DNA of 64,000 nucleotides from Escherichia coli. GTDB lineage: Bacteria; Pseudomonadota; Gammaproteobacteria; Enterobacterales; Enterobacteriaceae. Below the pieces are notes generated by a model that was not told the origin of the DNA, did not search any database, and worked only from the letters and a program-made list of their open reading frames with translations. Shown in pieces: positions 28,037 to 45,841 of this stretch; the stretch's first letter is position 1; every line of letters begins with the position of its first letter. Location of the stretch: the NCBI RefSeq assembly GCF_003334305.1, contig NZ_QOWS01000017.1; one strand, given 5' to 3'. The translations under genes and the position numbers were made by a program.

Positions 28037-28055
28037 TGCTCTCCCCGCCTCGCCC
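28037..28055 (-). other. P2/P4-type cos site (19-nt cohesive-end sequence)
   Basis: Reverse complement ggcgaggcggggagagcac differs at one position from the P2/P4 cos sequence as I recall it (GGCGAGGCGGGGAAAGCAC). Confidence 0.6.
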
Positions 28056-28792: not shown

Positions 28793-28806
28793 ACCCCGTC
28801 TCCTGA

Positions 28807-29052: not shown

Positions 29053-29783
29053 GACAGCAGTCCTCTGGCCTTAAGCACTGCTCCCTGCTGGTCTATTTTG
29101 TCCTGCCACACCTTGCGCTGTGCCGGTGTGCCTGCCACCTCATAATCCATGTGCGGGAGTGTTGCCGCTGACAGTCCGGTCAGCCGGAGAACCGGCTCGC
29201 CGGTGAGGCTGATTTGCATCTGTTTTATTTTCTGTTCCAGCGATGATTTCACCTGCTGCATGACAGCTTTATCGGGTGCGACGTAGCCCTGATGGCCGGT
29301 GGTGTTGGCGAGCGGATTTTCCTGTACCAGGATACTCAGATGCATTGCCCGGACAAGCGCCTCACAGGTTTCATTCAGGGCGTGTTCCAGCTCATGCTCT
29401 GCATACAGACTCAGAAGGTGATGATGTGCCTTCCGGTAGGCGGTGGCCGTGCTGTCACACGCCCCTTTCAGGCGTTCACGTTCAAAATTCAGCACCACGG
29501 CCAGATTGTCATATTCCTGTACCAGCTCCCGGCGTGCCACGCGCTCAATGTGGCGCTGTTTCAGCTCATCGCTCAGGACACCACCGGCTGCACGAAAGGC
29601 CGTGCGCCAGTCGTCAGCGTCGTTTCCGTCGGCCTGCGCCAGCGCATTTTTTTCCTGCTCTGCCCGTTCAATGGCCGTAACGGTCTCATCCATCAGGCGG
29701 GCGTTCTCAAGATGGGCGGCTCTGGACTTTTCCAGTTGTGCCAGTGCGGGTTGCAGATATTCAGGGATAGTGTGGTCAGACAT
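29049..29783 (-). CDS. sid: P4 Sid (capsid size-determination external scaffold)
   Basis: ORF 29049-29849; start placed at MSDHTIPEYL... (244 aa); coiled-coil-rich. Confidence 0.8.
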   Translation of the reverse strand: MSDHTIPEYLQPALAQLEKSRAAHLENARLMDETVTAIERAEQEKNALAQADGNDADDWRTAFRAAGGVLSDELKQRHIERVARRELVQEYDNLAVVLNFERERLKGACDSTATAYRKAHHHLLSLYAEHELEHALNETCEALVRAMHLSILVQENPLANTTGHQGYVAPDKAVMQQVKSSLEQKIKQMQISLTGEPVLRLTGLSAATLPHMDYEVAGTPAQRKVWQDKIDQQGAVLKARGLLS

Positions 29784-29817
29784 TTTCCGGCTCCTCGTCA
29801 CTTCAGGTTGAGAAAAT

Positions 29818-29873
29818 TGTGACGTACACCGGACAACAACACGACGCATTGCAGATGTGCCAGCCCTGACACA
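29818..29873. promoter_or_regulatory. two TGT-N12-ACA Ogr/Delta-type activator sites in the divergent late-promoter region upstream of sid
   Basis: TGTgacgtacaccggACA (29818-29835) and TGTgccagccctgacACA (29856-29873). Confidence 0.55.
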
Positions 29874-29951
29874 GGAGACTCATCCTCAGACCGGCAAGCC
29901 AGGAAAAGGTCGCAGGAAAAACCGGCTTACTGTTTGTTTTTTTATATTTTA

Positions 29952-30057
29952 CTGTTCACCTCTGTTCACCATAAGAAAAAAGATAAGTAATACAGTAAGT
30001 TAAAGGGTGAACAATCGCAGTAATGACTGTTCACCGTCTGTTCACCACTGTTCACCC
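29952..30057. repeat. P4 ori-like iteron cluster (TGTTCACC repeats, both orientations)
   Basis: At least six copies of tgttcacc or its complement within about 110 bp. Confidence 0.7.
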
Positions 30058-30335
30058 GTTGATGGGCTTTTTGTGCTGTTTATTACTGTTTGTTTTTATT
30101 AATTCGCCGGGAATGAATAAGAAAAAACGATTTGTATTTCACTATAAAAATTACGAATTGCTTTAAGTGGCTTTAAATGACTTTAAGTGGAGATGAACAA
30201 AAAACACACAAGCATTGTAAGGCTGCCGGAACAAATCCCCCCTGTTGCGTCTGCTGAAAATATTCACAAAATAAAACGCTACCCGAAGCCGGACGGACTT
30301 ATCCGGTGCTGTATGGACATTAACGAGGTAGCCCG

Positions 30336-30602
30336 ATGCAAGCTGTTTTTTCTTCCCCGTCTCCTGCCCCTGTGACGCCACTGATGCCGCTGCCGGACAT
30401 CACACAGGAGCGTTTTTTACGTCTGCCGGAAGTGATGCACCTGTGCGGCCTGTCACGCTCGACCATCTATGAACTTATCCGTAAGGGGGAATTTCCGCCG
30501 CAGGTGAGTCTTGGCGGTAAAAATGTGGCCTGGCTGCACTCTGAAGTCACCGCATGGATGGCCGGGCGCATTGCCGGACGCAAACGGGGGTACGACGCAT
30601 GA
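30336..30602 (+). CDS. AlpA/Vis-family small DNA-binding regulator
   Basis: 88-aa ORF; …[34 protein letters not shown]… is the AlpA-type HTH. Confidence 0.65.
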
Positions 30603-30991
30603 TGATGCCCGCTCTGCAAAAAGTCCCTTTTTCTGGCTTGCCTTTTTCCGGCATTTGCGGATATAGTTTTTCCGTTGCCGCAAAATCGGCAGCCGGGCGT
30701 GAGAACCCGTGTAACTCGAAGGCGACATATGACGCGCCATGCGTCTTTTTTTGTGTCGCAATCAACGCCACAGAGCGCCAGATTATGGTGTGGCGTGTGG
30801 TTTGCCGTGCAGGTATGATCCTGTTCGCAATCGCATGTTATGCCACTGAGTCAATGGTAGCTCAGGCGGGGCAGCCTCCGGGCTGGCCGGTATTCTTCGA
30901 GGCCGGTATTCTCACCCCCGTCTGGGCTATCGCCATCGAGCGTGAGAACTCCGGCGATAGCAGTTATTTGCTACTCGAAGGAGGCTGCCTT

Positions 30992-31189
30992 ATGGCTACA
31001 ACCCTTACCCCCTCACACCCTGAATTTGTCTTTGTGTTTGCGGCTGTCCGTCGCGCAGACCGTCATCCCCGTATCTGCATGCTTCGCACCGTCGCCGGTG
31101 ATGAACGCAGCGCCCGCCGTTCCCTTGTCCGTGACTATGTGCTCTCCCTTGCTGCCCGTCTGCCGGTGGTGGAGGTGTCCCGTGCGTAA
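30992..31189 (+). CDS. small hypothetical protein of the satellite early operon
   Basis: 65 codons from an ATG with a strong upstream aaggagg RBS, inside the longer ORF 30554-31189. Confidence 0.35.
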
Positions 31190-31469
31190 TAAAAAAGCCC
31201 CTCAGACCGTCTCAGCACGTCATGACGCCCGTGAACACCTCAGCATTGAGGCTTACCATAAGCTCAACCGCGCCAGCTCCGTATCCCAGTTTGTTGGGGG
31301 TGATTTGATTCACCGTGAACTCTCCGGCCTGCATCAGCTCTACATTCCGCATATTTTCAGCTACCTGAATGAAGATATTGATTTTGTGCTGAATGAGCTG
31401 AAAGCCAAAGGCCTGTGCCGCGATTTTCTCGCCCAGCAGAAAGACCGGGGAGACAGGACGCATGTTTGA
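31182..31469 (+). CDS. small early-operon protein, 95 aa from a GTG start (possible P4 epsilon-like anti-repressor)
   Basis: Tail of ORF 30942-31469; GTG preceded by ggagg; the size matches my recollection of P4 epsilon, but the assignment is not verified. Confidence 0.3.
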
Positions 31470-31917
31470 TTTTCCCCAGCCCGGTGAGATTTACCGTTCT
31501 GCCGGTTTTCCCGATGTGGCCGTGGTCGGCATTCTGGAAGACGGTATTCCGTGGGAAATGCCGTACCGCTGCCCGGACATTGTCTGGAACCCGTACCGCC
31601 GTAAATTCAGTATCCTTGTGCGTATCCTCGCTGACGGACGCACCACAGACATCCCGCTGGGGCGTTTTCTGCGGGAATTTACCTGTGACCGTCCTGACCT
31701 GTTTAAACGCAGCCCCGTAAACCGGCATGCGGTACTGAAAGAAATGGCCGGAGACCCGGAATTACAGAAATGGCGGGAAAAATATCTGGATATTTACCCG
31801 CAGGCCCCTGTTCCGGTCAGCCGGGCGGCACCGGTGGCGCGGGAATGGCGGGAAATTCCCCGCACGGAGCCTGACCCGGAAATCACCCCGGATAACAGTT
31901 ACCGCAATTATCTGTAA
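31462..31917 (+). CDS. P4 orf151-like hypothetical protein
   Basis: 151-aa ORF in the position and of the size of P4 orf151, upstream of alpha. Confidence 0.5.
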   Translation: MFDFPQPGEIYRSAGFPDVAVVGILEDGIPWEMPYRCPDIVWNPYRRKFSILVRILADGRTTDIPLGRFLREFTCDRPDLFKRSPVNRHAVLKEMAGDPELQKWREKYLDIYPQAPVPVSRAAPVAREWREIPRTEPDPEITPDNSYRNYL

Positions 31918-32052
31918 TTAAAAAACGACACCCGAAAAATTAAATGTGCGTATTCGCGCAGGGATACGCACGTCTTCAGGAGACGCAGATATGCCTTATC
32001 AGTTAATGCAACCGGCACGGAATGCAGTCATCTGTCACAGGGAGGAAAGCAA

Positions 32053-32373
32053 ATGAAAACCCCCTTACCGCCCGTCTTACGCGCAGCCCTTTACCGTCGC
32101 GCTGTCGCCTGTGCCTGGCTGACCGTGTGCGAACGTCAGCACCGCTACCCGCATCTCACCCTTGAATCACTGGAGGCGGCCATCGCCGCTGAGCTGGAAG
32201 GCTTTTATCTGCGCCAGCACGGTGAGGAAAAAGGGCGTCAGATAGCCTGTGCCCTGCTGGAAGATTTAATGGAATCCGGCCCCCTGAAGGCCGCGCCGTC
32301 GCTGTCCTTTCTCGGGCTGGTTGTGATGGATGAACTCTGTGCCCGTCACATAAAAGCGCCGGTACTGCACTGA
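32053..32373 (+). CDS. P4 orf106-like hypothetical protein
   Basis: 106-aa ORF immediately upstream of alpha. Confidence 0.5.
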
Positions 32374-32387
32374 AGGAGAACAACACC

Positions 32388-34721
32388 ATGAAAATGAACG
32401 TAACCGCCACCGTCAGCCATGCACTCGGCCACTGGCCGCGTATTCTCCCGGCGCTGGGGATTCAGGTGCTGAAAAACCGTCATCAGCCCTGTCCGGTCTG
32501 TGGCGGGAGTGACCGCTTCCGTTTTGATGACAGGGAGGGGCGCGGCACCTGGTACTGCAATCAGTGTGGTGCCGGTGACGGCCTGAAACTGGTTGAAAAG
32601 GTGTTTGGTGTTTCCCCGTCCGACGCGGCCGCAAAGGTGGCTGCCGTGACCGGCAGCCTGCCACCGGCTGACCCGGCAGTGACGGCCGCCGCCGTTGCTG
32701 AAACAGACGCTGCCCGGAAGAACGCCGCCACACTGGCACAAACCCTGATGGCGAAAACCCGTACCGGAACCGGTAACGCCTACCTGACCCGCAAGGGCTT
32801 TCCCGGCCGGGAATGCCGGATGCTGACCGGCACACACAGAGCCGGTGGCGTGAGCTGGCGCGCCGGTGACCTTGTGGTGCCACTGTATGACGACAGCGGC
32901 GAACTGGTTAACCTTCAGTTAATCAGTGCTGACGGCCGTAAGCGCACCCTGAAAGGCGGACAGGTCAGGGGCACCTGTCACACCCTTGAAGGACAGAATC
33001 AGGCCGGAAAACGTCTGTGGATAGCGGAGGGATACGCGACCGCACTTACCGTACATCACCTGACCGGTGAAACGGTGATGGTGGCGCTTTCTTCCGTGAA
33101 CCTCCTTTCTCTGGCCAGCCTTGCCCGGCAGAAGCATCCGGCCTGTCAGATTGTCCTTGCCGCAGACCGTGACCTCAGCGGTGACGGCCAGAAAAAAGCC
33201 GCCGCAGCCGCAGATGCGTGTGAGGGCGTTGTTGCCCTGCCGCCGGTCTTCGGTGACTGGAATGATGCCTTCACGCAGTACGGCGGGGAGGCCACCCGTA
33301 AGGCCATTTACGATGCCATCCGGCCACCGGCTGAAAGCCCGTTCGACACCATGAGCGAAGCAGAGTTTTCCGCCATGAGTACCAGCGAAAAGGCCATGCG
33401 TATCTATGAGCATTACGGTGAGGCGCTCGCGGTCGATGCCAACGGCCAGCTTCTGTCTCGCTATGAAAATGGTGTCTGGAAGGTGCTGCCGCCACAGGAC
33501 TTTGCCCGGGATGTGGCCGGGCTGTTTCAGCGTCTGCGCGCGCCGTTCTCCTCCGGGAAGGTGGCCTCCGTGGTGGACACCCTGAAGCTGATTATTCCGC
33601 AGCAGGAAGCCCCCTCCCGCCGCCTGATTGGCTTTCGTAACGGTGTGCTCGACACACAGAACGGCACGTTCCACCCGCACAGTCCGTCACACTGGATGCG
33701 CACCCTGTGCGATGTGGATTTCACCCCGCCGGTGGACGGTGAAACGCTGGAGACCCACGCCCCCGCGTTCTGGCGCTGGCTTGACCGTGCCGCCGGTGGC
33801 CGTGCGGAAAAACGCGACGTGATTCTGGCCGCACTGTTTATGGTGCTGGCAAACCGCTATGACTGGCAGCTCTTTCTGGAGGTGACCGGTCCCGGCGGCA
33901 GCGGCAAAAGTATCATGGCCGAAATAGCCACCCTGCTGGCCGGGGAGGATAACGCCACGTCGGCCACCATTGAGACGCTGGAATCCCCGCGTGAACGTGC
34001 CGCGTTAACTGGCTTCTCACTGATACGCCTGCCGGACCAGGAAAAATGGAGCGGCGACGGTGCCGGACTCAAGGCCATCACCGGCGGCGATGCGGTGTCC
34101 GTTGACCCGAAATACCGGGATGCATACTCCACGCATATCCCGGCGGTGATTCTGGCCGTGAACAATAACCCGATGCGCTTCACCGACCGCAGCGGCGGCG
34201 TGTCACGCCGGCGGGTGATTATTCACTTCCCGGAACAGATAGCCCCGCAGGAGCGCGACCCGCAGCTTAAGGACAAAATCACCCGCGAGCTGGCGGTCAT
34301 CGTGCGTCACCTGATGCAGAAGTTCAGCGACCCGATGCTCGCCCGGTCACTGCTTCAGTCCCAGCAGAACTCAGACGAGGCGCTGAACATCAAACGGGAT
34401 GCCGACCCGACGTTTGATTTTATCGGCTATCTGGAAACCCTGCCGCAGACCAGCGGCATGTATATGGGGAACGCCAGTATCATCCCGCGTAATTACCGTA
34501 AATACCTCTATCACGCCTATCTGGCCTACATGGAGGCAAACGGCTACCGGAATGTACTCAGTCTGAAAATGTTCGGGCTGGGGCTGCCGGTGATGCTGAA
34601 GGAATACGGACTGAATTACGAGAAGCGCCATACCAAACAGGGGATACAGACCAACCTGACGCTGAAAGAGGAAAGCTACGGCGACTGGCTGCCAAAATGT
34701 GACGACCCTGCAACAACCTGA
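32388..34721 (+). CDS. P4 alpha primase-helicase (zinc-finger primase, P-loop helicase, C-terminal iteron-binding domain)
   Basis: 777-aa ORF; N-terminal CPVCGG…CNQCG zinc motif; Walker A GPGGSGKS in the central region. Confidence 0.9.
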   Translation: MKMNVTATVSHALGHWPRILPALGIQVLKNRHQPCPVCGGSDRFRFDDREGRGTWYCNQCGAGDGLKLVEKVFGVSPSDAAAKVAAVTGSLPPADPAVTAAAVAETDAARKNAATLAQTLMAKTRTGTGNAYLTRKGFPGRECRMLTGTHRAGGVSWRAGDLVVPLYDDSGELVNLQLISADGRKRTLKGGQVRGTCHTLEGQNQAGKRLWIAEGYATALTVHHLTGETVMVALSSVNLLSLASLARQKHPACQIVLAADRDLSGDGQKKAAAAADACEGVVALPPVFGDWNDAFTQYGGEATRKAIYDAIRPPAESPFDTMSEAEFSAMSTSEKAMRIYEHYGEALAVDANGQLLSRYENGVWKVLPPQDFARDVAGLFQRLRAPFSSGKVASVVDTLKLIIPQQEAPSRRLIGFRNGVLDTQNGTFHPHSPSHWMRTLCDVDFTPPVDGETLETHAPAFWRWLDRAAGGRAEKRDVILAALFMVLANRYDWQLFLEVTGPGGSGKSIMAEIATLLAGEDNATSATIETLESPRERAALTGFSLIRLPDQEKWSGDGAGLKAITGGDAVSVDPKYRDAYSTHIPAVILAVNNNPMRFTDRSGGVSRRRVIIHFPEQIAPQERDPQLKDKITRELAVIVRHLMQKFSDPMLARSLLQSQQNSDEALNIKRDADPTFDFIGYLETLPQTSGMYMGNASIIPRNYRKYLYHAYLAYMEANGYRNVLSLKMFGLGLPVMLKEYGLNYEKRHTKQGIQTNLTLKEESYGDWLPKCDDPATT

Positions 34722-34765
34722 CCCACCTGACCGGCATCTGCCGGTCTTTTTTTATCCCTGAATTC

Positions 34766-35070
34766 CCCGAAGGTGAACAATCCACTGTTCACCCTTCACC
34801 GTATATTCACCCGTTATCACACTGAAATTAAAAGAGAAAAACGAAAGGTGAACAGTGTGAACAATCAAATCAAAAAAAACTTTTTTCTTCCTGAGTGATT
34901 TCAGCACGGGAAATTAATCCCCTGCACAAGTCACACCGGCAGAATGCCGGAGGTGAAGAATCGAATGTTCACCCTTCACCCATTATTCACCACCTATCCA
35001 ACTGAAATAAAAGGAGAAAACAGAAAGGTGAACAGTGTGAACAGTTCTTTCGAAAAAAAATTTTTTTCTT
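34766..35070. repeat. P4 crr-like region: two tandem repeats of about 120-125 bp, each carrying TGTTCACC-type iterons
   Basis: Near-identical units beginning ccgaaggtgaacaatccactgttcaccc… and ccggaggtgaagaatcgaatgttcaccc…. Confidence 0.7.
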
Positions 35071-35185
35071 ATTTTTAATTGTGCGAAAAACAAGCGACAC
35101 ACGCAGTGTGTATAGATATGTGTATAGTTATATTTTTTGAATATTATAATGTATTACAAATCAATGTGTTAGCTTGTAATATTCA

Positions 35186-35205: not shown

Positions 35206-35808
35206 AAGAAAATCAATAACTTAGCTTAACTTCTCTAAGAAATTGTATCTTCTGTTATCACTTACAAACGCCTATACGTTGTTATGGGCTTTGGTAGTGT
35301 AACACGTATGGGCGAGTAGTTCCCAGGCTCAACCTCGTAACAAGTTCCTTTGAAGCTGGAAGACGTGCCACCGTCTCTAAACCTTCTACCAAAACTCTTA
35401 GCAAGATGTTCCACACCTGGCGCGGTGTCCAATGATGCTACACGTCGTGAGACGTTGCAGAGGATAAACAGGCTAAATGATGGGAAGAGTTTTAAGTGCA
35501 ATAGTGGATTAAAGCCCACCTCTTCAAAACCTAACTTGATCGGGAAAGAATCAAGCTCTAGCACGGTTTCGTCCACCGGAGTACAACGGGTGCCTGATAA
35601 GAGAAGAACTGCTAAGACTTCATAGCTTTTGTGAAAAAGCCCTTTTTAGTGGATACGCCTACGGCGCTTATTTTTTGGTATAACCATCAAAGGCGCTTTA
35701 TGGCTCCTATTGTCTTGAAAATGTATCTTTACTTGTATTGTGTTTTATGCGTAGTCTCCCTGTGTAGTATGTAACTTGTTAATTTTCATATGAATACAGA
35801 GGCACACG

Positions 35809-35967
35809 ATGAAAAACATTGCAGCTATCAAACGGAATAACCGCAAGATTCACGCTCGTAAGTTCCTGTCTACGCCAGAAGGAAAAGCCTGGCTAGAGCG
35901 TAAACAGAGAGAAAACGAAGAAAGAAAACTCCTTAGTGAGTTGAAATGGCTTAGAGAGGATTTCTGA
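35809..35967 (+). CDS. small basic hypothetical protein (52 aa), below the ORF-track size cutoff
   Basis: ATG preceded by an agagg RBS; translation MKNIAAIKRNNRKIHARKFL…. Confidence 0.3.
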   Translation: MKNIAAIKRNNRKIHARKFLSTPEGKAWLERKQRENEERKLLSELKWLREDF

Positions 35968-36310
35968 AAATCTCCAGAACGCAACAGGACGCATTCTAAC
36001 GCTGTTTTCATTACTCGGTATAGGGATTATAGGTGATGTGTGTTTAATGCGTCTGTGAGCTTGTTTTGTGCCTTATTTTGCATTTTCATAATGCAGGAGA
36101 GAACACGGAAAGCCTTAAAATTAATTATTGGGGTATTTAAGGCTATTTTTAGGTTATTTAAGGGTATTAAACTTGATTTAATTGATTGAAATATAAACAG
36201 ATAATTATGTATCTTATTGATTTATAAGGTTATTTTTAAATAAAGGTAAATAAAAAATAAATAGCCATAAATAGCTATAAATACATCTAAATACCTATAT
36301 CCCTTCCCTT

Positions 36311-36694
36311 ATGGCTAGATTGCGAGAAGTGCTTAACGCGATTTTCAGCGCCCCCCGATCTGGAAAATCCAGAATCCCCAAATATCAGCAAGGAATTTTC
36401 TTGCGTAATCAACATCGTTTTTACCTATTAAATCATTACACAGAAAGCCTTTCTGTAATGTCTCTCACTAAACTTTCACTAAACACGAGAATGATCGGTT
36501 TTATGTCGGATCAGATGCTAGAAATAGCACCACGTCTCACAAGGGCTGTAAGCGATGAAACCAGTGTTTATGCGGGTGCAGGTCAAAATATAGGCCAAAA
36601 TACATTTAACATAATAAACGTAATATGCACTAAGGAACACATAGAACGCCTTGAGTTGATGTATCAGGGGAAAAGTGGTGGATTTTTTACGTAG
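36311..36694 (+). CDS. hypothetical protein
   Basis: 127-aa ORF in an AT-rich region; no recognisable motif. Confidence 0.25.
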   Translation: MARLREVLNAIFSAPRSGKSRIPKYQQGIFLRNQHRFYLLNHYTESLSVMSLTKLSLNTRMIGFMSDQMLEIAPRLTRAVSDETSVYAGAGQNIGQNTFNIINVICTKEHIERLELMYQGKSGGFFT

Positions 36695-36720
36695 GAGCAC
36701 GAGAGGGCTTCTATTGACTT

Positions 36721-36999
36721 TTGTATGCTATGAAATATAATAGAAGGTTTTTTTATGTTGATAGTGATTGCACATTAAAGATTGAAAGCAAATTTAAACA
36801 TAAATTTTCAACACGTGAAAGAGAACTTGTTCGACAAATGATAAAACGTTTATTGAGCAACAATTTTGCAGTGATGCGCTATATGCCGAATTACACAAGG
36901 CTTTGCGAAAGTGATGTAAAAGTGAAGAAAGTAAGAATTGCAACTTTAAGCTACTTTTCATTGAATTTTTTAGTATGGAATTACACAGGAATAAGTTAG
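36721..36999 (+). CDS. hypothetical protein
   Basis: 92-aa ORF; no recognisable motif. Confidence 0.25.
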   Translation: MYAMKYNRRFFYVDSDCTLKIESKFKHKFSTRERELVRQMIKRLLSNNFAVMRYMPNYTRLCESDVKVKKVRIATLSYFSLNFLVWNYTGIS

Positions 37000-37085
37000 G
37001 GATATTCTATGATTTACACAGGGAATATAGGGGGATTATGGCACACACATAGAAAGACATTACACAAAGTGCTATGTGACAAATG

Positions 37086-37303
37086 GATGTAACGAGAGGT
37101 TACATTCAGCTATCTGAAATGCTCTCTGTAAGAAAGTTGGTAGTAACGATATGTTACATAGACTAATTATTGAATGTAACGATATTACACATCGGTAGTA
37201 ACGATACGTTACATCGACTAATTATTGAATGTAACGATATTACACATCGGTAGTAACGATACGTTACATCGACAGATGATTGGATGTAACGAAAGGTTAC
37301 ACA
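37086..37303. repeat. iteron/operator array: seven GTAACG-N4-5-GTTAC-type palindromic sites, including two perfect 57-bp tandem units
   Basis: Units ggtagtaacgata(c/t)gttacat…gaatgtaacgatattacacatc repeated head-to-tail; an AT-rich stretch follows at about 37310-37390. Confidence 0.7.
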
Positions 37304-38398
37304 ATAAGACTATATTATTTATAATACTAAATAAAACTATATTAGATTATTAATTAGATCATAATAATATTCTTTATATCTATATATATGATCTTTTGCC
37401 TTCCGGCGTTAGCTTCACTCCCTGGCAAGCAGCCTTACTCCGCTACCTTTCGGGCTACGTTGGCTGGCCCGTTCCGCTCACACCGAAAGCAAAGCGTTAC
37501 TTTCTTCGTGTAACTATCGTGGCGGTAACGCCCACGAAGAAATACTATTGCGCTGTGCGCAGAAGAGTAATCACCTAACCAATCATAGATTGCTTATGTG
37601 TTAACTCTCTCTACCTCTTAATTCCACTTCCTACATTTAATAACTCTGTTATTCTCTGTAGTTGTGTAATTACTCGAAGAGAGAGCGGCTAAAGCTCAAT
37701 TACACTCTGCTTTCCTCGTGTAAGTTCACTAAGCCTCAATACAATTTCACTTCCTACATTCTGTAGTCGTGTAATTGTTTTCGGTGGAAAAGCCAGAGGC
37801 GACACCGAAAGAGAATTCTGATCTTATTAATCTTATCTATCTTAGTTAATCTTCTTACTTTATCTACTTTATTATTAATAATAGCTTTATAAGCTCTGTG
37901 TAGCTCTCTGACGCAAGAAACAGCATTCAGGAAGGGAATCACCTTAGAAAAGGTGTTCTTTGCGTCATAATGTGTTTTATGAAGGATTCAGAGGTGTTTC
38001 ATAACAGGAATGTATAGAGGATATTTTAATTAATTAAAAATAAGGGGTCTAAATGCTTCTCTAACAACATTAAGCAGGGTAGGGAATGGAAACGCATTGC
38101 CTACATATAATAAGCTCACTACAGGGCTTTACAGAGCGTTTTATAAAGTGACTCTCTGTTTTATATTTACCATTACCTTTTCATATACCTAACAAATACA
38201 AAATAAGCCCCTTCAATAAGCCTCTGGCGAGCGAAACAGCCATTAGATAAGGGAATGTATTGCTTTTATCAAAATCTCGTCAGAATGCGATTGAGAGTGT
38301 TTTAGCGGATAATGAAGAATAGCACTACATAGAAGAGCACGAATTGTTAAGCAAAATCATAACATACTGAAAAAGATCAGTTTTTTTGTGAAAAGGTA

Positions 38399-38427
38399 TT
38401 GACAAACGTCTCTTTCTGTGCAATAAT
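38399..38427 (+). promoter_or_regulatory. sigma70-like promoter (TTGACA, 17-bp spacer, TGcAATAAT extended -10)
   Basis: Read directly from sequence; about 130 nt upstream of the 38555 ORF. Confidence 0.5.
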
Positions 38428-38554
38428 AGGTATTAGAGGGGACAGGAATAGATTCTTATCCTCTAAATAATTAAACCAATGCACCGCACTTTGAAGCCCA
38501 AGAGGCTTGCAAGGTGTTTTTTCTTTTAACCAAATCGAATAAGGAGGCTAATTA

Positions 38555-38731
38555 ATGAAATATTTCACTCCACAGGATGTAGTAGAAGCCTGGAAACGTG
38601 GTGAGATCAACCGCTTTAAAGTAAGGATGTATAGAAACACCGCTCGCCGTTGTGGTTATCCAGAGCGTGAAAAATGTTTTGACGATGCACTGAAAATTAT
38701 TGATGAACTGCGTAAAGCTGAGAAAGAATAA
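38555..38731 (+). CDS. small hypothetical protein (58 aa)
   Basis: ATG with a strong aaggagg RBS; first gene after the promoter. Confidence 0.45.
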   Translation: MKYFTPQDVVEAWKRGEINRFKVRMYRNTARRCGYPEREKCFDDALKIIDELRKAEKE

Positions 38732-38753
38732 TAGACAAGAGAAGGAGAAAACT

Positions 38754-38921
38754 ATGAGCGAAACTAAGAAACCAATTCCGCGCACTTACCTTCACGTTGA
38801 CCCTGAAATCTTCAAGGTTTTATTTGCTGAAGCCAAGAAAAGGCAAATTATGGTCAGTGATTTGATGTTAGAAATCATTACTGAAGCAGCAGAGAACATC
38901 AAACAAAAAAAGGGTAAGTGA
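38754..38921 (+). CDS. ribbon-helix-helix (CopG/Arc-like) DNA-binding protein
   Basis: 55 aa; …RTYLHVDPEIFKVLFAEAKKRQIMVSDLMLEII… fits a beta-strand then two helices (RHH). Confidence 0.5.
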   Translation: MSETKKPIPRTYLHVDPEIFKVLFAEAKKRQIMVSDLMLEIITEAAENIKQKKGK

Positions 38922-38974
38922 TCCTCATTCACTTTAGTAGCGCATTAAGCGTGATTTATAAGGAGATGATTCTA

Positions 38975-39718
38975 ATGTCTAAAATTAAATTGATTCGTGA
39001 AAAATACCAGTATGTTGATAAACAAACAGGAGAAATTAAAGACCGAACTTTGAATATACCGCATTACTTTTGTGAGATTGAATTTATCTACTCCTCAAGT
39101 GTTGATGGTGGAAAAGTTAAGTTTAGTGCAGAAATGCAAAAATTATATTGCTATGTTTCAGATTGGGAGAAATCAGGGGGGATATGTTTTGAAACACAAA
39201 CGAAGTTAAGTAAAGTTTGTGGCTGTAGCCGTAAGACAGTTAATGAACTGATTGGTCTTATGATTAAAATCGGTCTTTTAGAAGAGGTCGGAGAACGAAT
39301 TCCAAAACGTCCTTTAAAATTACGTGCGCTACCTCTCACAGATGCACATATTACTCCCCCAGGAGAATCATCACTCTCTGATCTTTCTGAGGCAGAAGAA
39401 GCACAGGAACAACCTAAAGGCCATAAACAGCCTTCTTTTGATGTTCTTGATGATTGGGATGCGCCTTTACCGTGGGAGACGGAAGAAACACCTGTTTCAT
39501 CAAGTGAAAAGGTAGCTAATGATAATGAGGAGGATGTATTAGAGAATTTTGCCTCTCTTATCATCCAGGAGAAACACACAAGAACAGGAGGAGCATCATT
39601 TATTGAGTTTGCAAATTCACTAGCTTATAGATACGGGCTAAAACGACCAAATGGTATTGAGGCATATTTTTCTAAGAATTACCCAAATGTATATGATGAA
39701 TTTGATATTCCCTTTTAA
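38975..39718 (+). CDS. helix-turn-helix protein with acidic C-terminal half (candidate replication initiator or regulator)
   Basis: ORF 38918-39718; start placed at the ATG after an aaggag RBS; winged-helix-like segment …TQTKLSKVCGCSRKTVNELIGLMIKIGLLEE…. Confidence 0.5.
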   Translation: MSKIKLIREKYQYVDKQTGEIKDRTLNIPHYFCEIEFIYSSSVDGGKVKFSAEMQKLYCYVSDWEKSGGICFETQTKLSKVCGCSRKTVNELIGLMIKIGLLEEVGERIPKRPLKLRALPLTDAHITPPGESSLSDLSEAEEAQEQPKGHKQPSFDVLDDWDAPLPWETEETPVSSSEKVANDNEEDVLENFASLIIQEKHTRTGGASFIEFANSLAYRYGLKRPNGIEAYFSKNYPNVYDEFDIPF

Positions 39719-40141
39719 TAAGGAGGACTATGATTCAATATTTAGTAAAAAAATCAAGTAGACAGAATTCAGTGTAATGACACAGGAAAACGCATCTACG
39801 AAACACTTGCTTACCTCTATAAAGGAAAGCCAACACCGCTAAAATATAGCGATGTGTTACATCGAGCAGGGTGCTCTGAAGCTGGTTTAAAATTCTGGCT
39901 GAAACAGCTATCAAATTTCGGTGTTATTGAAATGAAAGAGCTGTCTTTTTCTACATTCAATCTCAAAAGATTAGATAAAGAAATAGAATTCATCTATTCC
40001 ACTCTCTAAAATCTCTCTATGTAATTAAAATATAAAAGGAAAACATTATTATGATAGTAGCTATGTATTGGTTATTGTTCTTTCTCACGTTAGAAGCATA
40101 CTTTGGGGTGTTTTCCTTTAAAAGAAAAGGAAAAGTAAATA

Positions 40142-40558
40142 ATGGCAAAAAGAAAAAACAACGTTGTTAAGAAAATCGGTGATTCAGCTTCTCTTCTAAG
40201 TAAACCTAAACCTAAATCTATTCTAAGACGTAAAGACTTTAAAGAGCTAGTTACGCTCACCAAGCAAAATAGCGCCCCTGGCGAATGGAAAACAGAGATC
40301 ATAGAACATTCTCCCTCTGTGCCTTGTGGAGATGAATTTAACGCCTTGCAAGAAATCTTATCTTCAACACCTGGCGTATTCTGGAAACCTAGAAAAAGAA
40401 AAGAGTATATCGTTGATAGCTCTGATTTACGCAAATACCAGATTTTAGGATTTGAAGATTATAACCACTACGTCGGTTATCTCGCCACCAATGGCCTAAA
40501 TAATTTAGTTCCTGAATTCCAAATTTTAGATAATGCTGATCACTATGGAGACTTTTAA
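40142..40558 (+). CDS. hypothetical protein with basic N-terminus
   Basis: 138-aa ORF. Confidence 0.45.
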   Translation: MAKRKNNVVKKIGDSASLLSKPKPKSILRRKDFKELVTLTKQNSAPGEWKTEIIEHSPSVPCGDEFNALQEILSSTPGVFWKPRKRKEYIVDSSDLRKYQILGFEDYNHYVGYLATNGLNNLVPEFQILDNADHYGDF

Positions 40559-40559
40559 T

Positions 40560-40898
40560 ATGAACAAAAACACGTATGACACAATTTATTCACTAATTAA
40601 TTATTATGAGGATGATTACCTCCTGCCTTTAAACCGCGCTGAACTTGAAGCATACAAAGAAAACACGCCAGGGGCGCTAAATGAGGCGTTTAAACACTGG
40701 GATTTAGCTGTGAATGCCTTTGAGCACCTTTCTAAAAGAGTAGAGATGCTCTGTAAGCGTGAAAACGCATACCTGACAGCCGATCAGATATGGGAGCTAT
40801 CAAACTGGATAGAAGATATTGAATCTGATGTTCGCTATGTAGGGGATGGCCTGGTTGAATTAGCTCAACGCTTAGGCGCTACTATCACAGAAGAATAA
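40560..40898 (+). CDS. hypothetical protein
   Basis: 112 aa from an ATG overlapping the upstream stop (taATG). Confidence 0.45.
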   Translation: MNKNTYDTIYSLINYYEDDYLLPLNRAELEAYKENTPGALNEAFKHWDLAVNAFEHLSKRVEMLCKRENAYLTADQIWELSNWIEDIESDVRYVGDGLVELAQRLGATITEE

Positions 40899-40927
40899 AA
40901 AAAGCAACAAAAAAGTTGTAAAATATC

Positions 40928-40959
40928 TTGACATTCCATCTATTGTATGTTAATATAAT
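40928..40959 (+). promoter_or_regulatory. strong sigma70-like promoter (TTGACA, 17-bp spacer, TAATAT)
   Basis: Read directly from sequence; followed by about 290 nt of structured leader before the 41248 ORF. Confidence 0.5.
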
Positions 40960-41247
40960 TATATAGGGGTGATTATTTTTCCTTTATTGGTTCGATATTA
41001 AAAATTCTTCCTGTCATTAAAGGGGAGTAAAATCTCCGCTCCCCGCTTCTCCTCCTTAAGTAAATACTGTGTCATTATACCTCTTTTTTCCTTTGTTATG
41101 CATACATCTTGGAGTATGCATAACATAGGGTAATTACATAGGTATGAGTTAATAAAAGGCGGCTCTAAATGCTGCCTTTTATTTTGCCCGTTATGCAACT
41201 TAAAAGTTGTATTTCTTACTTTAAAAAAGGTAACAAGGTTTATATAA

Positions 41248-41460
41248 ATGTTGTTTTTAAACGATAAAGAGCAAATCATCAAGTATAAAGATGAAATGCT
41301 GAAAATTAATCCACAAATTACCGAAATGGTAGCTAAATACGCTGGGTGTTCTGTCGAGGAAGTAGAAAGATGTGTTGAAAAATATTTTTCTCCTTCTACT
41401 CCGTCTACACCTTCCCTTAATGAATTAATCAAATTAAAAGCTAAGGAGATTACTAAATGA
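41248..41460 (+). CDS. hypothetical small protein
   Basis: 70-aa ORF; stop overlaps the next start. Confidence 0.4.
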   Translation: MLFLNDKEQIIKYKDEMLKINPQITEMVAKYAGCSVEEVERCVEKYFSPSTPSTPSLNELIKLKAKEITK

Positions 41461-41819
41461 TTATTGATTTAGACACTCTGTTTCCAGTTAGAAAGACTTT
41501 CACAGATATTGTAAGTTATTGTACTGATCCGTTTGCCTCTGTAGAAAGCAAGGTTTTTGCTTCTCTTCCTGCTGATGTTGAGTGCGGCGACTTGATCACC
41601 AGTACTGGCGCTAAATATGAATCAGGAGATGATATCTATGTTGTTATGAGTGAATTTGTAACGGCTGGAGAAAACAAGCCTGTAGATGTGCTACGTAGTA
41701 ATGCTGGTCTTGTCTGCATCAAAGCTGATGCGCTGAATGCTGTAAGTGAAGCAGCAAAAACAGCATTAATTAAAAAAGGCTTCCAGCTTGAAGGGTTCCA
41801 TTCTGTTTTCACTTCTTAA
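41457..41819 (+). CDS. hypothetical protein upstream of the capsid-like gene (possible decoration or scaffold-like)
   Basis: 120-aa ORF, translationally coupled; functional guess from position only. Confidence 0.45.
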   Translation: MIIDLDTLFPVRKTFTDIVSYCTDPFASVESKVFASLPADVECGDLITSTGAKYESGDDIYVVMSEFVTAGENKPVDVLRSNAGLVCIKADALNAVSEAAKTALIKKGFQLEGFHSVFTS

Positions 41820-41837
41820 TAAAAGGAATAATAATAA

Positions 41838-42869
41838 ATGATTCTAGGTAATGATTACGTTGATTTAGCTCCGCTTTTCCAGGCACACAGCACTAGAAAC
41901 TTTCTGCTCTCTACCCTCGACTTCACTGATCCGGTGGGCGTTAGTTCTCATAAAGTAGCTGTTTCTCAGCTTGTCGAAAGCAACGAATCTCTGTTCAACA
42001 AAGAAACCTCTCGTTTCTCTTCTGAACACAATGTTACTAAGCGTGAACAAGGTAAAGAATGGCTGATTGAAATCCCGTATTTTCTTCGTGAAGATGTGAT
42101 CCGTCCTTCTGATGTTCAAGGCAAGCGTAAGCCTGGCACTGATTTTCAGGAAACACTCACTGATATCTATGCGGAATATATCGCTAAACACCACGTAGCG
42201 TATCAGCGTACAAAAGAGAGCGTGTTGGCTGCATCTCTGTTTAGCGGTAAAACTTACACGCCTAAAACTGATGATGTTCTTATCGAGTGGGGCAAGCTGT
42301 TTAACGTGGCACCTATGAAAGCCACCTTGAACGCTTCCAGCACTGACACAATGACCGTTTTCAAGCAATTTGACCAGCTTGCTACGGATATGATTGCTAA
42401 GGCACAAAACCAGGCTGCAACCATTGAGCGTGTTGTTGTGTTCTGTAAACCTGCGGCATTCAACGCTATTCGTTACAGTGTTGGTATGGTCAATGCTTTC
42501 CAATATGCAAGCCCTGTAGACGATGCCAACGTGGTGTTTAATGTGCGTTCCCTGCTACCAGGTGTAACTACTTTCACCATTCCAGGAACTAACATTGACC
42601 TGATCAAAGTGACTGATCCGCTACACCTTGCACATATGGCTTCTGATGCGGTTGCTGTGCCTAAATTCGCTAAGGGGGCAGGTGTTTACCAATCTATCTA
42701 TGGGGCAGCTTCCAGCACCTTTGAACTGATCAATGCCGCTCCTGCTGAGGTGTATAGCTATAGCTATGAATCTTCTTCTCGTGGTGATGCTGTTAACGTT
42801 GTTACAGAGAATAGCCAGATGGTGGTAAACCACGGCGTTGGTTTCTCCGTTCAAATCACTGTTAAATAA
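41838..42869 (+). CDS. phage major capsid protein candidate (lambda gpE-like family)
   Basis: 343-aa ORF (lambda E is about 341 aa); several segments, including the C-terminal …GFSVQITVK, resemble my recollection of lambda E; not verified by search. Confidence 0.5.
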   Translation: MILGNDYVDLAPLFQAHSTRNFLLSTLDFTDPVGVSSHKVAVSQLVESNESLFNKETSRFSSEHNVTKREQGKEWLIEIPYFLREDVIRPSDVQGKRKPGTDFQETLTDIYAEYIAKHHVAYQRTKESVLAASLFSGKTYTPKTDDVLIEWGKLFNVAPMKATLNASSTDTMTVFKQFDQLATDMIAKAQNQAATIERVVVFCKPAAFNAIRYSVGMVNAFQYASPVDDANVVFNVRSLLPGVTTFTIPGTNIDLIKVTDPLHLAHMASDAVAVPKFAKGAGVYQSIYGAASSTFELINAAPAEVYSYSYESSSRGDAVNVVTENSQMVVNHGVGFSVQITVK

Positions 42870-42955
42870 TATTTTAACGTGTAATAGAGGCGTGGCGTGA
42901 ATAACACGCTTCGCCTTTTTTTATTTATTTTTAAATTTTGAGAGGTGATTAAAAT

Positions 42956-43159
42956 ATGGAAGTGATTCTGAAATCAAAAAATGGTGTACACGTTTATTTA
43001 GATGCTAATGATTCAAGAGGCTTGTTAAATCTGAAATATCTATGTTCTCTCTTGGATGTTCCATATGAAGGCGTAAAAGCCCGAATGTTCAGATTAAACG
43101 AGAGTATTGATCAAGCTCTACACCATTTCTTAAGCAAAGAAGGTGGTAAAAATGATTAA
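42956..43159 (+). CDS. hypothetical small protein
   Basis: 67-aa ORF. Confidence 0.35.
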   Translation: MEVILKSKNGVHVYLDANDSRGLLNLKYLCSLLDVPYEGVKARMFRLNESIDQALHHFLSKEGGKND

Positions 43160-43173
43160 TAAGGGGATTTTAA

Positions 43174-45012
43174 ATGTTAGAAATTAACACTTCTAAAATT
43201 AAGAACACAGTAACATTTAGTGTAGATAAAGACAGCTTGAAAAAAGCGAAAGACTCTATTACAGGCTTAAAGGAATTCACAGAAAACATCAAGCCAGCTA
43301 AATTAAGGTTTGATAGTGTCACTAAAGGCTATAAGAAAGCACAAAGCGAAGTAGACAAGATTGCTCAACAGAAAGCTAAAACAGAAAAGCAGAATCAAAG
43401 AGCACAAGCTGCCGCAGCAAGAGCACAGGCAAGGCAACAGACACAAATAGCAGCACGTAAAGAGAAAGCAGAATTAAAGCTCCTCGATGTGTCAAGCTCT
43501 ATCAGTGCAATGCACCGCCTCTCTGTAGCGGAACAATACAAAGCTATTGCACAGGCTAGAGAGATAGCAAAACAATATGAGCAAGGGGCTATCTCGCTTG
43601 CACGTATGAATAGTCAGATGAAACGCCTACAACAGCAACAACGTAAGATTAATGGCAACAGAAAAGCTCAATTAGCCCCCGTTAAGGGAGGAGGATCAGG
43701 GAATTCCGCCACGATGGGTGCTCTGTTATTTGGAGGCGCTACAGCGGCTGCTGGCGTGATGGCTGTTAGTAAAGCGTCGGAGTTTGTTAGTAACAGTTTC
43801 GCTAACGCAGAGACACAAGGTGAGCTAATTCAACGTGCAAGGCTTGGCGGTGTAGACGTTAACCAGATGTACAACATTACAGAATGGGCCTATAGAAACG
43901 GCGTTGACTCTATGATGGGTGATCAAGGGGCTAGGAAATACCTGGATCAGATGAAAGATGTTAGGGAACGTGCCGCAAAATCCTATAGTGAAGCTGAATA
44001 TGTAGTCGATAAAAAAACTGGTAAAGGCGGCGAATGGAAAGGCGGTGATAACGCTATTAATGAACTTCTAAACATCGGTGTTATTAACAAGAGCGACCTT
44101 AAAAAATTTGCTGATAATCCAGCCGGATTAATTTCTAAGGCTGTTAATGGAATGATGAAAAAAGGGTTTTCAGACTCCCAAATTGGACAACGTTTAGAAG
44201 ACCTGGGTGATGATTTGATGCTTACATCAAAATATTGGCAACGTTCCGTTAAAGATGTACAAACAAGCATCGAGCAGCAAAAAGCCTCTGGAAAATGGCT
44301 AACAGAAACACAGCAAGATTCTATTGTTAAATTCAGAGAACTAAACAGACAGCTTTCACAGCTTTCTGATGCAAGACAAGTAGCATTTGTAGACGGCTTT
44401 ATGAAATCTCTCGATCCAAAAGTAACGGAAGAGTTTATGAAAAACCTTTCTAATCTCACTCCGTATTTTACAAAGCTGGGAGAAGCTACAGGAAGTCTCT
44501 TTGAAGCTATTATGAAGATTGTAAACTGGTTTAATCGTAATGATGATAAGACAGATGCTATTCAGAAAAATTTAGGTGATGCACCGCCATTAAGCAATGA
44601 AGGAATGAAACAGAATCTTTCTAATCTCGTTCCTGATCAATATAAAGGCGCTGGCACCGGAACAACTAAGCCAGATAACAGCAATTCCCTGTTTAACACT
44701 ATTAAGGGATTGCTTTTCGATGATAAGTCTTCTTCTGTGTCAGATGTAAAAATGTCAGTCAGCGAAGCACCGATAACCAATCTCAAACAGGGCGCTTTAA
44801 ATAATCTTGCAATGACAACTCCGGCTTATAATTTATCTCCTGTGTTTAATCTGAATCCTACATTTGAAGTGGTAACAGAGGTTCCTCTTACTATTAATTC
44901 TGACACATCAAGATTAAGCGATTATGTGGATTTTACAGCGAGATCAAGTCGGGATAGCTTCTTGAAATCATTAACATTAACCAGCTTATCAGGACAATCT
45001 AACGGCGGGTAA
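43174..45012 (+). CDS. large coiled-coil protein with a Gly/Ala-rich hydrophobic segment (tape-measure-, pilot- or ejection-like)
   Basis: 612 aa; K/Q/A-rich predicted coiled coil in the N-terminal 170 aa; GGGSGNSATMGALLFGGATAAAGVMAV segment. Confidence 0.55.
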   Translation: MLEINTSKIKNTVTFSVDKDSLKKAKDSITGLKEFTENIKPAKLRFDSVTKGYKKAQSEVDKIAQQKAKTEKQNQRAQAAAARAQARQQTQIAARKEKAELKLLDVSSSISAMHRLSVAEQYKAIAQAREIAKQYEQGAISLARMNSQMKRLQQQQRKINGNRKAQLAPVKGGGSGNSATMGALLFGGATAAAGVMAVSKASEFVSNSFANAETQGELIQRARLGGVDVNQMYNITEWAYRNGVDSMMGDQGARKYLDQMKDVRERAAKSYSEAEYVVDKKTGKGGEWKGGDNAINELLNIGVINKSDLKKFADNPAGLISKAVNGMMKKGFSDSQIGQRLEDLGDDLMLTSKYWQRSVKDVQTSIEQQKASGKWLTETQQDSIVKFRELNRQLSQLSDARQVAFVDGFMKSLDPKVTEEFMKNLSNLTPYFTKLGEATGSLFEAIMKIVNWFNRNDDKTDAIQKNLGDAPPLSNEGMKQNLSNLVPDQYKGAGTGTTKPDNSNSLFNTIKGLLFDDKSSSVSDVKMSVSEAPITNLKQGALNNLAMTTPAYNLSPVFNLNPTFEVVTEVPLTINSDTSRLSDYVDFTARSSRDSFLKSLTLTSLSGQSNGG

Positions 45013-45046
45013 TTCCCGCCATAACATTACAAGGAAAATTATTATT

Positions 45047-45760
45047 ATGGCGACCGCCGGGATTTTAACCATACGTGCAGCAAATACTCCAGAACAACAC
45101 GTTCAGGCTGTTTACAAAGCAGAACAAGATATAAATTCTACAAAAAACGAAAATAGCAAAGCTAATAAAACAAAAGGAGAGAACGGATTTGCTATTGTTA
45201 CCAGTGGCTTGGCATCTTCTGGCAATGACGTTTATGAAAATTATATGGCCCTGGCCTTTGACAGTGTAGACGATGTGAACGTGAGACGTTCGGCAGATGT
45301 CACAAGCTACCCCGTAGAAAATGGTGCTACTGTGTCTGATCACGTTCAAATTAAAAACAATAAGTTTTCTCTTAAAGGAAGGATCACTGAAACACCGATT
45401 AAAAGCGATCCTGGCTTGTTAAAGAGTGCAGGGGTGAACGGGAACAGAAGATCATTAGCCATAGACTACTTGAATCAGATTATGGACAGTAGACAGCCTT
45501 TTCTTCTTGTTACAGAAAATAAAACTTTTGAGAACGTTGTTTTAACAGGCATCGAATACACAGAAGAGGCAAGCGAATCCCTGGTATTTGATCTTAGCTT
45601 TGAGCAGATCAGATTAGTTTCTTATGGCACTGTATCCACTATTGCACTTAAAACACAACCATCTAAGAACATCGGGGCGAATATGAAAAAACGTGTTAAC
45701 ACTGAAAAATCAAGTAGTGAAGGTGAAGACACTATTACTCCTGCCTTTAAGCAGAAATAG
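45047..45760 (+). CDS. hypothetical protein (possible virion structural protein)
   Basis: 237-aa ORF. Confidence 0.5.
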   Translation: MATAGILTIRAANTPEQHVQAVYKAEQDINSTKNENSKANKTKGENGFAIVTSGLASSGNDVYENYMALAFDSVDDVNVRRSADVTSYPVENGATVSDHVQIKNNKFSLKGRITETPIKSDPGLLKSAGVNGNRRSLAIDYLNQIMDSRQPFLLVTENKTFENVVLTGIEYTEEASESLVFDLSFEQIRLVSYGTVSTIALKTQPSKNIGANMKKRVNTEKSSSEGEDTITPAFKQK

Positions 45761-45801
45761 CCGTAAACGCCTCTAAAACGCTCTGTAACGATGTAATTAT
45801 A

Positions 45802-45838
45802 AAAGAGGCTGCCAATCTATGTTGAAGCCTCTTTATTG
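45802..45838. terminator. bidirectional intrinsic terminator between the structural-like genes and the convergent integrase
   Basis: Stem aaagaggct / agcctcttt with flanking A/T runs. Confidence 0.55.
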
Positions 45839-45841
45839 TGT

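Follow-up and report, generated by a model that had tools for sequence, protein, structure and literature searches.

What is a short GC-rich island doing in the middle of AT-rich, almost unannotated DNA of Escherichia coli? The island lies in a 64,000-nt stretch of contig NZ_QOWS01000017.1 (assembly GCF_003334305.1), referred to here as the window, which is a 100% match to the chromosome of E. coli strain A7 (NZ_CP028767.1). The NCBI Prokaryotic Genome Annotation Pipeline (PGAP) places a single 52-aa open reading frame (ORF) between 34721 and 38555, and the island sits inside this ~3.8-kb 'empty' stretch. An initial annotation, made from the letters of the window, had proposed that positions 37391–37565 specify a structured RNA, either a replication primer or a regulatory RNA, rather than a 60-aa protein. 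We find that the island is the 5′ domain of a larger block that is non-coding, conserved, modular and always adjacent to a replication origin, with stems that covary. E. coli is the best-annotated bacterium, and large structured non-coding elements that belong to no known family are rare in it; we tentatively read this one as a structured RNA of the + strand.

The island stands out in composition as first described, with a GC content of 0.54 in 37400–37549 compared with 0.23 immediately to its left (37250–37399) and 0.32–0.35 in the iteron region further leftwards. The perfect 10-bp stem that had drawn attention to it is present, 2 nt left of the position originally implied. Specifically, the arms tttcttcgtg (37501–37510) and cacgaagaaa (37533–37542) enclose a GGCG-GUAA-CGCC hairpin (GGCG 37521–37524, GUAA 37525–37528, CGCC 37529–37532), and RNAfold yields exactly the 37501–37542 hairpin. 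Further short stems had also been mentioned and are found, for example GCGC-UGU-GCGC at 37550–37560. By our estimate, chance alone would produce ~1–2 perfect 10-bp inverted repeats within 30 nt in 64 kb, and the fold z-scores of the island alone are only marginal (-1.8 on the + strand, -1.9 on the - strand), so the lone stem is no evidence by itself. What places the island beyond chance is its conservation, the covariation in its homologues and the fold of the whole block.

The homologues also dispose of the protein. A frame is open in the window strain, as a 60-aa ORF (37396–37578) and a 41-aa ORF (37388–37513), and a hypothetical protein is annotated at the island in one (H45) of the 438 carrier genomes described below, the other 437 having no annotated gene there. 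The 60-aa ORF indeed begins on a non-ATG codon, TTG, with no Shine-Dalgarno sequence upstream that could serve as a ribosome-binding site. Its frame is broken by 1-nt indels or stops in all ten near-identical copies in IMG/VR; these copies differ by 1–5 indel columns versus 1–4 substitutions each, and the indels fall in predicted loops and linkers when the alignment is read by eye against the folds. In distant homologues, whole hairpins are inserted, deleted or replaced in the ORF region. The lack of frame conservation refutes the 60-aa protein reading, and we consider a small protein from either ORF extremely improbable.

The island is real, and its right-hand end at 37565 was set too short, the initial annotation having seen only the 5′ third of a feature that reaches at least ~37815. 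The sequence from the GATC at 37390 to ~37815 is nearly invariant among close relatives; the block ends at ~37815, perhaps at ~37985, which gives a total of 0.45–0.6 kb, and across 43 representatives the conserved block measures 325–510 nt. Fold z-scores of the whole block are -4.6 on the + strand and -7.1 on the - strand in the window (443 nt), -4.7 and -5.8 in locus L032, and -2.6 and -4.1 in locus L030; z-scores against shuffled sequences were computed for these three variants, and the remaining representatives were compared by unshuffled minimum free energy. The block is made up of the following parts.

37391–37815, + strand: whole conserved structured non-coding block, delimited by fold z-scores, nhmmer matches in distant elements and alignments
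37424–37469, + strand: core hairpin M2, with a GGC/GCC lower stem, an AAG bulge, a CAGCC/GGCUG mid stem and an invariant apical GGCU
37470–37500, + strand: linker CGTTCC-GCTCAC, then a short hairpin region (ACGC...GCGU in relatives), from alignment A2 and module folding
37501–37542, + strand: module M5, the 10-bp stem enclosing GGCG-GUAA-CGCC, a variable multi-hairpin domain
37548–37562, + strand: module M6, a conserved hairpin UUGCGC-UGU-GCGCAG, with a compensated variant CGCC-GUG-GGCG in locus L079
37604–37685, + strand: extra copy of the long stem of the 3′ domain, with apical AAUAAC-UCU-GUUAUU and CUCUCUC/GAGAGAG closure, from direct repeats and folding
37687–37810, + strand: 3′ domain, with a GGCU...AGCC stem around a variable hairpin, a long imperfect stem (37742–37777), the GCCAGAGG motif and a UUUCGGUG/CACCGAAA hairpin
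37909–37985, + strand: terminator-like inverted repeat (37909–37927 / 37949–37967) with an inner hairpin (37940–37955), then U-rich GUGUUUUAUG; a possible 3′ end of a + strand transcript

Covariation is evident in the core hairpin M2. Its architecture, a 3–4-bp lower stem, an AAR bulge, a 5-bp mid stem and the apical GGCU, recurs in at least six sequence-different versions, and the mid-stem versions CAGCC/GGCUG (13 loci), UGACC/GGUCA (22 loci) and UGUCC/GGACA (9 loci) are all perfectly paired. Seven of 15 pairs have changed on both sides, and M2 cells are paired at 92.9%, compared with 77.7% after shuffling (0 of 500 as high) and 21–50% with slid partners; the alignment behind these figures was fitted to the model, and the per-variant folds and arm tables provide independent support. 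Compensated pairs in excess of both the shuffled and the slid controls identify the block as a structured non-coding nucleic acid. Homologues thus show the compensatory changes that the initial annotation had anticipated, and codon-like conservation in place of stem covariation is not seen.

RNAalifold on a global MAFFT alignment of the island (A2) gave the GCGC hairpin alone. Because mosaic variants shift the helix columns, global alignment was dropped, and per-module folding, arm tables and a covariance model were used instead. The covariance model (R1), built from non-window types, has its top match in 44 kb at 37420–37472 (+ strand; 15 bits, E = 0.09) and also finds window-type copies at other loci with E about 1e-3; these scores were obtained with filters off (default filters missed the window type), and type-d variants score weakly (E about 5).

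The modules outside M2 vary to different degrees. The emphasised 10-bp stem, while present, proves to be the least conserved part of the block and belongs to a variable peripheral domain: in relatives, the M5 position is taken by two or three different hairpins of small size, and every M5 version has the conserved closing stem GUG(C)...(G)CAC, with covarying flanking pairs (U-A vs C-G, A-U vs C-G). The consensus fold of the 3′ domain is a long stem capped by a GAUAAC/GUUAUC hairpin, with CCUC/GAGG closure and compensated pairs; in the extra copy of the window the cap reads AAUAAC/GUUAUU, a compensated change. This copy (37604–37685), which is missing in locus L015 and in other sequence types, forms with 37742–37777 an internal duplication of the long-stem unit in the window type. 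In Escherichia sp. E1V33 (L015), one long-stem copy has been lost, apparently via recombination between repeats.

The block is carried by 438 of 5426 complete E. coli genomes (~8%), at different chromosomal sites. The 201-nt island is 95–99% identical in 426 of the 438, and the flanks are less conserved. A variant of the block occurs in 103 additional E. coli genomes, among them BL21 / E. coli B, where apbC and thiM flank the full array of iterons, AT-rich region and block. In strain A35, an element at tRNA-Gly (L002) shares a 66–92-nt core that is 88–95% identical, together with the same motif order; compared with the window, no similarity is detectable for its capsid and Rep proteins, and its tape-measure-like protein and integrase are 28% and 34% identical, respectively. 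Profile searches with nhmmer place the block in further elements with ~30%-identical tape-measure-like proteins, and a 22-nt motif from the 3′ part retrieves 6 viral and 65 metagenomic loci, grouped into 43 clusters at 93% identity. An exact 19-mer scan of genome contigs gave four matches, one of them by chance and one probably E. coli DNA in a metagenome-assembled genome. Searches of 50,697 phage records and 72,556 plasmid records gave no match to the block; two plasmid matches span 36902–37354 only and leave out the island. A fragment of a host gene or a copy of an attachment (att) site was considered and rejected, as there is one copy per genome and no second site.

Sequence that is highly conserved independently of the proteins of its element might be a double-stranded DNA site acting in cis, either a pac or cos site for the terminase of a helper phage or a recombination site. 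The element in the window has no terminase or portal and needs a helper, and many relatives carry a 186-aa tyrosine recombinase to the left of the non-coding region. However, compensatory changes in stems are unexpected for a duplex protein-binding site, the phage records hold nothing similar, the element in the window keeps the block without the small (~186-aa, FimB-sized) recombinase, and an inverted orientation of the block was not seen among ~70 loci, all of which makes a duplex site very unlikely. An invertible switch operated by such a recombinase was rejected on the last two grounds.

The position of the block is as constant as its sequence. Immediately to its left lie three features that together resemble an iteron-type replication origin.

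36888–37066: cluster of TTACACA repeats, DnaA-box-like (GAATTACACAGG and similar), left of the iterons, from repeat families
37084–37301: iterons, seven copies of a 21-bp unit TGGWWGTAACGA-N-GTTACA with a 55-bp period, from direct-repeat families
37302–37390: AT-rich spacer resembling a DNA unwinding element, GC ~0.2, ending in GATC

Read by eye, the TTACACA repeats resemble the DnaA box consensus TTWTNCACA, matching it at 7–8 of 9 positions. Seven 21-bp repeats, an AT-rich stretch and a nearby Rep-like gene are the predicted components of an iteron-type theta origin. An AT-rich, GATC-containing stretch occurs at the equivalent position in every related element, and the block starts at its end in all elements, whatever the iteron or Rep type. 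At least ten unrelated iteron families precede the block among relatives, the iterons having been replaced wholesale, and, judging from the sequences, initiator and iteron modules are exchanged while the block is retained. Because the island adjoins a replication origin, a replication primer or a regulatory RNA was a reasonable family of ideas to begin with.

The iteron families upstream of the block include TGTAACG..., ACCCCTATCAA, ATACGGGAAAAACCCGTAT, ACATCAAAATGATGT, GTGACAAAATGGCAC, GGGGGTAGGTCA and others, a variety seen in the window (37084–37301), in L002 (11780–11930), in L003–L012 and in metagenomic loci. Left of the iterons, L002 (~11490–11560) and L040 (~2650–2720) have another conserved non-coding piece in common (gcaaattgcacctatcatgaaagtgctcattgtccacaatgatcgctgtgagccgcacagcgcaaggc), although L040 lacks the block.

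Adjacency to an unwinding region suggests a way in which the block could work as single-stranded DNA. Rep would open the AT-rich region, and the hairpins of the block would then act as entry or assembly sites for helicase, primase or PriA, of the host or of a helper, in the form either of a single-strand initiation (ssi) signal as found beside plasmid origins or of a G+C-rich boundary to unwinding; a transcript would not be needed. Hairpin-forming DNA beside an unwinding region is common to the block, whose hairpins covary and which has this neighbour in all elements, and to the known ssi signals, such as the G4-type G-sites of plasmids R1 and R100, the phiX-type n′ primosome assembly site (pas) of ColE1 and ssiA/ssiB of RSF1010. 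These G4-type and phiX-type signals lie near the R1, ColE1 and RSF1010 origins, do not depend on the specificity of the plasmid initiator and are recognised by host priming proteins; in the block, abutting the AT-rich GATC region in every element fits a contact with conserved host replication proteins. Likewise, the oriV of RK2 (and pPS10-type origins) has the same order of iterons, A+T-rich and G+C-rich regions, a G+C-rich segment lying beside the A+T-rich region, although to our knowledge the RK2-type segment is short and not known for covarying hairpins. A DNA function would also account for a conserved promoter being found on neither strand, for compensatory changes that are almost all from Watson-Crick to Watson-Crick, as expected for DNA hairpins too, for GAA triloops on both strands and tolerated loop flips, and for G.T-type and A.C-type mismatches that are about equally frequent. 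It is less compatible with the size and build of the block, which has 430–600 nt, two conserved domains, variable peripheral hairpins and unpaired motifs where known ssi signals have ~60–140 nt, with an enrichment of GNRA loops confined to one strand, and with terminator-like ends positioned on the + strand. We regard a single-stranded DNA accessory of the origin as the chief competing reading, conceivable but less likely than not.

Indicators of the functional strand conflict, but several features point to RNA, and to the + strand. Among 20 distinct tetraloops, five are GNRA on the + strand (GAGA, GAAA, GUAA, GCAA, GUGA) and none on the - strand. Terminator-like sites consisting of a hairpin and a U-run number 41 on the + strand versus 16 on the - strand, and in ~22 of 37 representatives such a site lies on the + strand at a consistent position, 91–117 nt past the GCCAGAGG motif and just upstream of the operon promoters. 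These promoters are strongly conserved tandem + strand sites, TTGATC-17-TATTAT and TTGACA-17-TAnAGT, which a promoter scan detects in 36 of 38 representatives. In the window, the corresponding hairpin and U-run are the 37909–37967 inverted repeat with GUGUUUUAUG after it. For the 3′ domain, RNAalifold gives a better energy to the + strand (-12.2) than to the - strand (-7.1), and a few substitutions in M2, the 3′ domain and L014 produce U.G or G.U on the + strand. In its size, its insertion of modules at fixed sites and its conserved single-stranded motifs, the block resembles large structured RNAs. From these patterns we infer the RNA nature of the block, the + strand as the functional one, the ends of the transcript and its function; a + strand structured RNA from ~37391 to 37985 is the reading that we favour, with less than full conviction and somewhat short of an even balance.

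Several results weigh against it. No conserved sigma-70 promoter points into the block on either strand, so that of the original proposal the broken ORF and a selected, structured non-coding element stand, and the RNA nature is less firmly grounded; only 11 of 40 representatives have a + strand promoter-like site ahead of the block, all weak and scattered, whereas the operon promoters are picked up by the same scan in 36 of 38. In every one of the 43 representatives the - strand folds more stably, on average by 17 kcal/mol, and its z-scores are the stronger ones in all three variants compared with shuffles. Single mismatches in Watson-Crick helices are balanced, with 10 G.U-type and 13 A.C-type contexts; an excess of G.U over A.C in the long stem of the 3′ domain was discounted, because the search pattern fixed its 3′ arm. 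The GNRA loop of the window hairpin reads AUAA in 2 of 12 close relatives, and hairpin loops are flipped, from GUGAAAC to GUUUCAC, in two lineages. Furthermore, the block matches none of 4227 Rfam models, in the window or in relatives. In particular, the covariance-model scan that had been proposed as a check matched no family at the block: Rfam 15 at the gathering threshold gave six matches in the whole window, none of them in 36000–38500, a scan of 36800–38200 at E <= 10 gave chance-level eukaryotic matches only, and scans of five related loci, and of the L032 block at E <= 5, gave nothing at the block.

The better fold of the - strand invites the opposite polarity, with an RNA running leftward from the operon promoter region to the unwinding region as a pre-primer resembling ColE1 RNA II, an antisense RNA or a countertranscript. 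The window has a promoter-like site at 38051–38023, ~620 nt right of the unwinding region, one subtype has TTCAAA-16-TATAAT, and the implied length of ~600 nt is near that of RNA II. The block also shares with ColE1 RNA II / RNA I a multi-hairpin non-coding region of several hundred nucleotides that is tied to an origin and conserved in structure over sequence. However, promoter-like sites on the - strand occur in ~14 of 38 representatives, most of them weak, and are absent or weak in ~24 of 38; none of the 20 tetraloops is GNRA or UNCG on this strand, terminator-like sites are few on it, and the Rfam models for RNAI and other replication control do not match the block. ColE1 itself has neither Rep nor iterons, whereas the element in the window has both and lacks the initiator independence of ColE1, and RNA II starts at a strong promoter ~555 nt upstream and runs towards the origin, whereas here a conserved promoter is not found and the better-supported strand runs away from the unwinding region. 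We judge a - strand RNA improbable.

According to the + strand RNA reading, transcription would start where the unwinding region meets the block, ~37391–37400, and end at the hairpin and U-run, ~37909–37985, just upstream of the operon promoters of the element. A block that stays constant while Rep and iterons are swapped, and that always touches the unwinding region, argues for a partner common to all elements. Such a partner would be machinery of the host or helper phage, not the initiator that the element itself encodes, and the block would work with it at or near the firing of the origin; plausibly, the block regulates origin firing or early gene expression, or serves as a cofactor in either. 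If we assume a helper-dependent or otherwise non-canonical promoter, the missing sigma-70 promoter would be reconciled with the RNA model. Put together, and more tentatively than the + strand RNA itself, the block may represent an undescribed class of ~0.5 kb structured RNA, specific to undescribed capsid- and tail-gene-bearing satellites of Enterobacteriaceae, expressed from a helper- or replication-triggered origin promoter and controlling satellite replication or helper exploitation via host or helper machinery.

Two groups of known RNAs offer a comparison. The P4 CI and P1/P7 C4 antisense RNAs, which give satellites and phages RNA-based immunity, include a satellite-encoded structured RNA processed from an untranslated region upstream of replication genes, and the internal direct repeats of the window block recall their seqA/seqC. 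However, the C4 model (RF01695) matches only the neighbouring P4-like element, at 30850–30937, and not the block; the block precedes the operon promoters instead of forming part of their leader; and the internal repeat is missing in most relatives. GOLLD, ROOL, HEARO and STAXI are likewise hundreds of nucleotides long, built of modular hairpins and located in mobile DNA, and had initially no known function; the STAXI motif is also suspected of acting as single-stranded DNA. They differ from the block in hosts and contexts, adjacency to an origin is specific to the present element, and Rfam gives no match.

Hundreds of sequenced strains carry the block, BL21 / E. coli B among them, and it is more conserved than any protein of its carrier element. 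If it is an RNA, it would be a new large RNA and possibly a new satellite means of replication control or helper sensing; a block that works as DNA would amount to an unusually elaborate accessory of the origin, common to replicons with interchangeable initiators. BL21 is a laboratory strain with existing transcriptomes, in which expression of the block can be examined. In BL21 (L119, NZ_CP053601.1, 8830–9560), the array is accompanied by the first genes of such an element, next to IS1. The block lies at about 2,056,000–2,056,650 of NZ_CP053601.1, and further carriers include APEC O1 (at about 297,500) and O26/O111 strains. A leader with a strong terminator-like hairpin (ccaccaggtttttggtgcgggggcttttttgcg) lies between the operon promoter and the first ORF of this element (L119 9770–9830), which suggests control of the operon by attenuation or antitermination. 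Sequence searches may also miss part of this family of structured elements: locus L038, scored by nhmmer as lacking the block, has an analogous series of hairpins after its AT-rich region (12700–13100), with UUGGC-GUA-GCCAA, AGGCGG-GGAA-GCCGCCU and GUGCAAUGCC-UAC-GGCA...

What, then, carries the block? In the window, the carrier lies in tandem with a P4-like satellite, in the following order.

Left part of the window: proA and the tRNA-Thr gene thrW (thrW 23283–23358)
~23400–35100: P4-like satellite, with integrase, Gabija gajA/gajB cargo, psu, delta, sid, C4/isrK RNAs and an alpha primase gene to ~34721
34767–35066: crr-like repeats of the P4-like satellite
~35300–47200: second element, ~12 kb, in tandem to the right of the P4-like satellite; it holds the block
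38399–38427, + strand: predicted operon promoter TTGACA-17-AATAAT with TG, downstream of the block
38975–39718, + strand: putative replication initiator (PHROG replication initiation, O-like and DnaD-like families, E = 7.5e-7), ~1.4 kb right of the island
41838–45760, + strand: structural genes for a major capsid protein, a tape-measure-like protein and a Dit/baseplate-like protein
45842–47119, - strand: tyrosine integrase, right end of the element, 34% identical to the L002 integrase

The putative Rep gene carries the genome annotation 'transcriptional regulator'. The capsid protein is a lambda-E-type major capsid protein (Pfam Phage_cap_E, 4.4e-14), and the tape-measure-like protein has 612 aa. 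Neither annotation nor family searches of the element's proteins revealed a terminase or portal gene, so the element looks like a phage satellite that must depend on a helper. The block thus marks a satellite-like family with Rep, lambda-E-type capsid, tape-measure-like, Dit-like and integrase proteins, and its carrier appears from sequence to be an integrative or episomal element of ~12–14 kb. Distant tape-measure homologues lie inside the structural module of a PhiTE-like myovirus (L043), which makes a PhiTE-like myovirus the probable type of helper. The tape-measure-like family is small, with 73 representatives at 50% identity among 1.84 billion proteins; this size comes from a search of 50% representatives, a plain homologue search being saturated by near-identical E. 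coli entries. A literature search by keywords, Pfam names and sequence strings found neither the element family nor the block described.

Contigs L038 (14,065 bp) and L039 (14,176 bp) have gene orders that are circularly permuted relative to each other, and a ParA-type partition gene takes the place of the large integrase; the permutation and ParA indicate that they are probably ~14-kb episomes. In an unrelated genome (L047, 11600–18066), the integrase of the element adjoins P4-type int, cII, psu and delta, and, together with the tandem placement in the window, this suggests that attachment sites are shared or adjacent. Most relatives have the ~186-aa tyrosine recombinase gene at the left border of the long non-coding region, encoded on the opposite strand (L002 10429–10989; L035 882–1442; L037 929–1489; L040 1574–2134; L041 704–1264; L047 497–1060). 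The Rfam int-alpA motif (42.5 bits, above the gathering threshold) is found at L030 13361–13431, near the integrase end of a related locus.

Among the Rfam matches elsewhere in the window, isrK and C4 with its a1b1 targets lie at 30661–30937 in the P4-like satellite, the candidate small RNA IS009 at 53636–53835, and naRNA4, a REP-type element, at 5232–5309. The P4-like satellite at thrW also carries a complete Gabija defence system at 24694–28016 (GajA, E = 1e-253; GajB, E = 3e-229), located in the AT-rich cargo slot between its integrase and psu.

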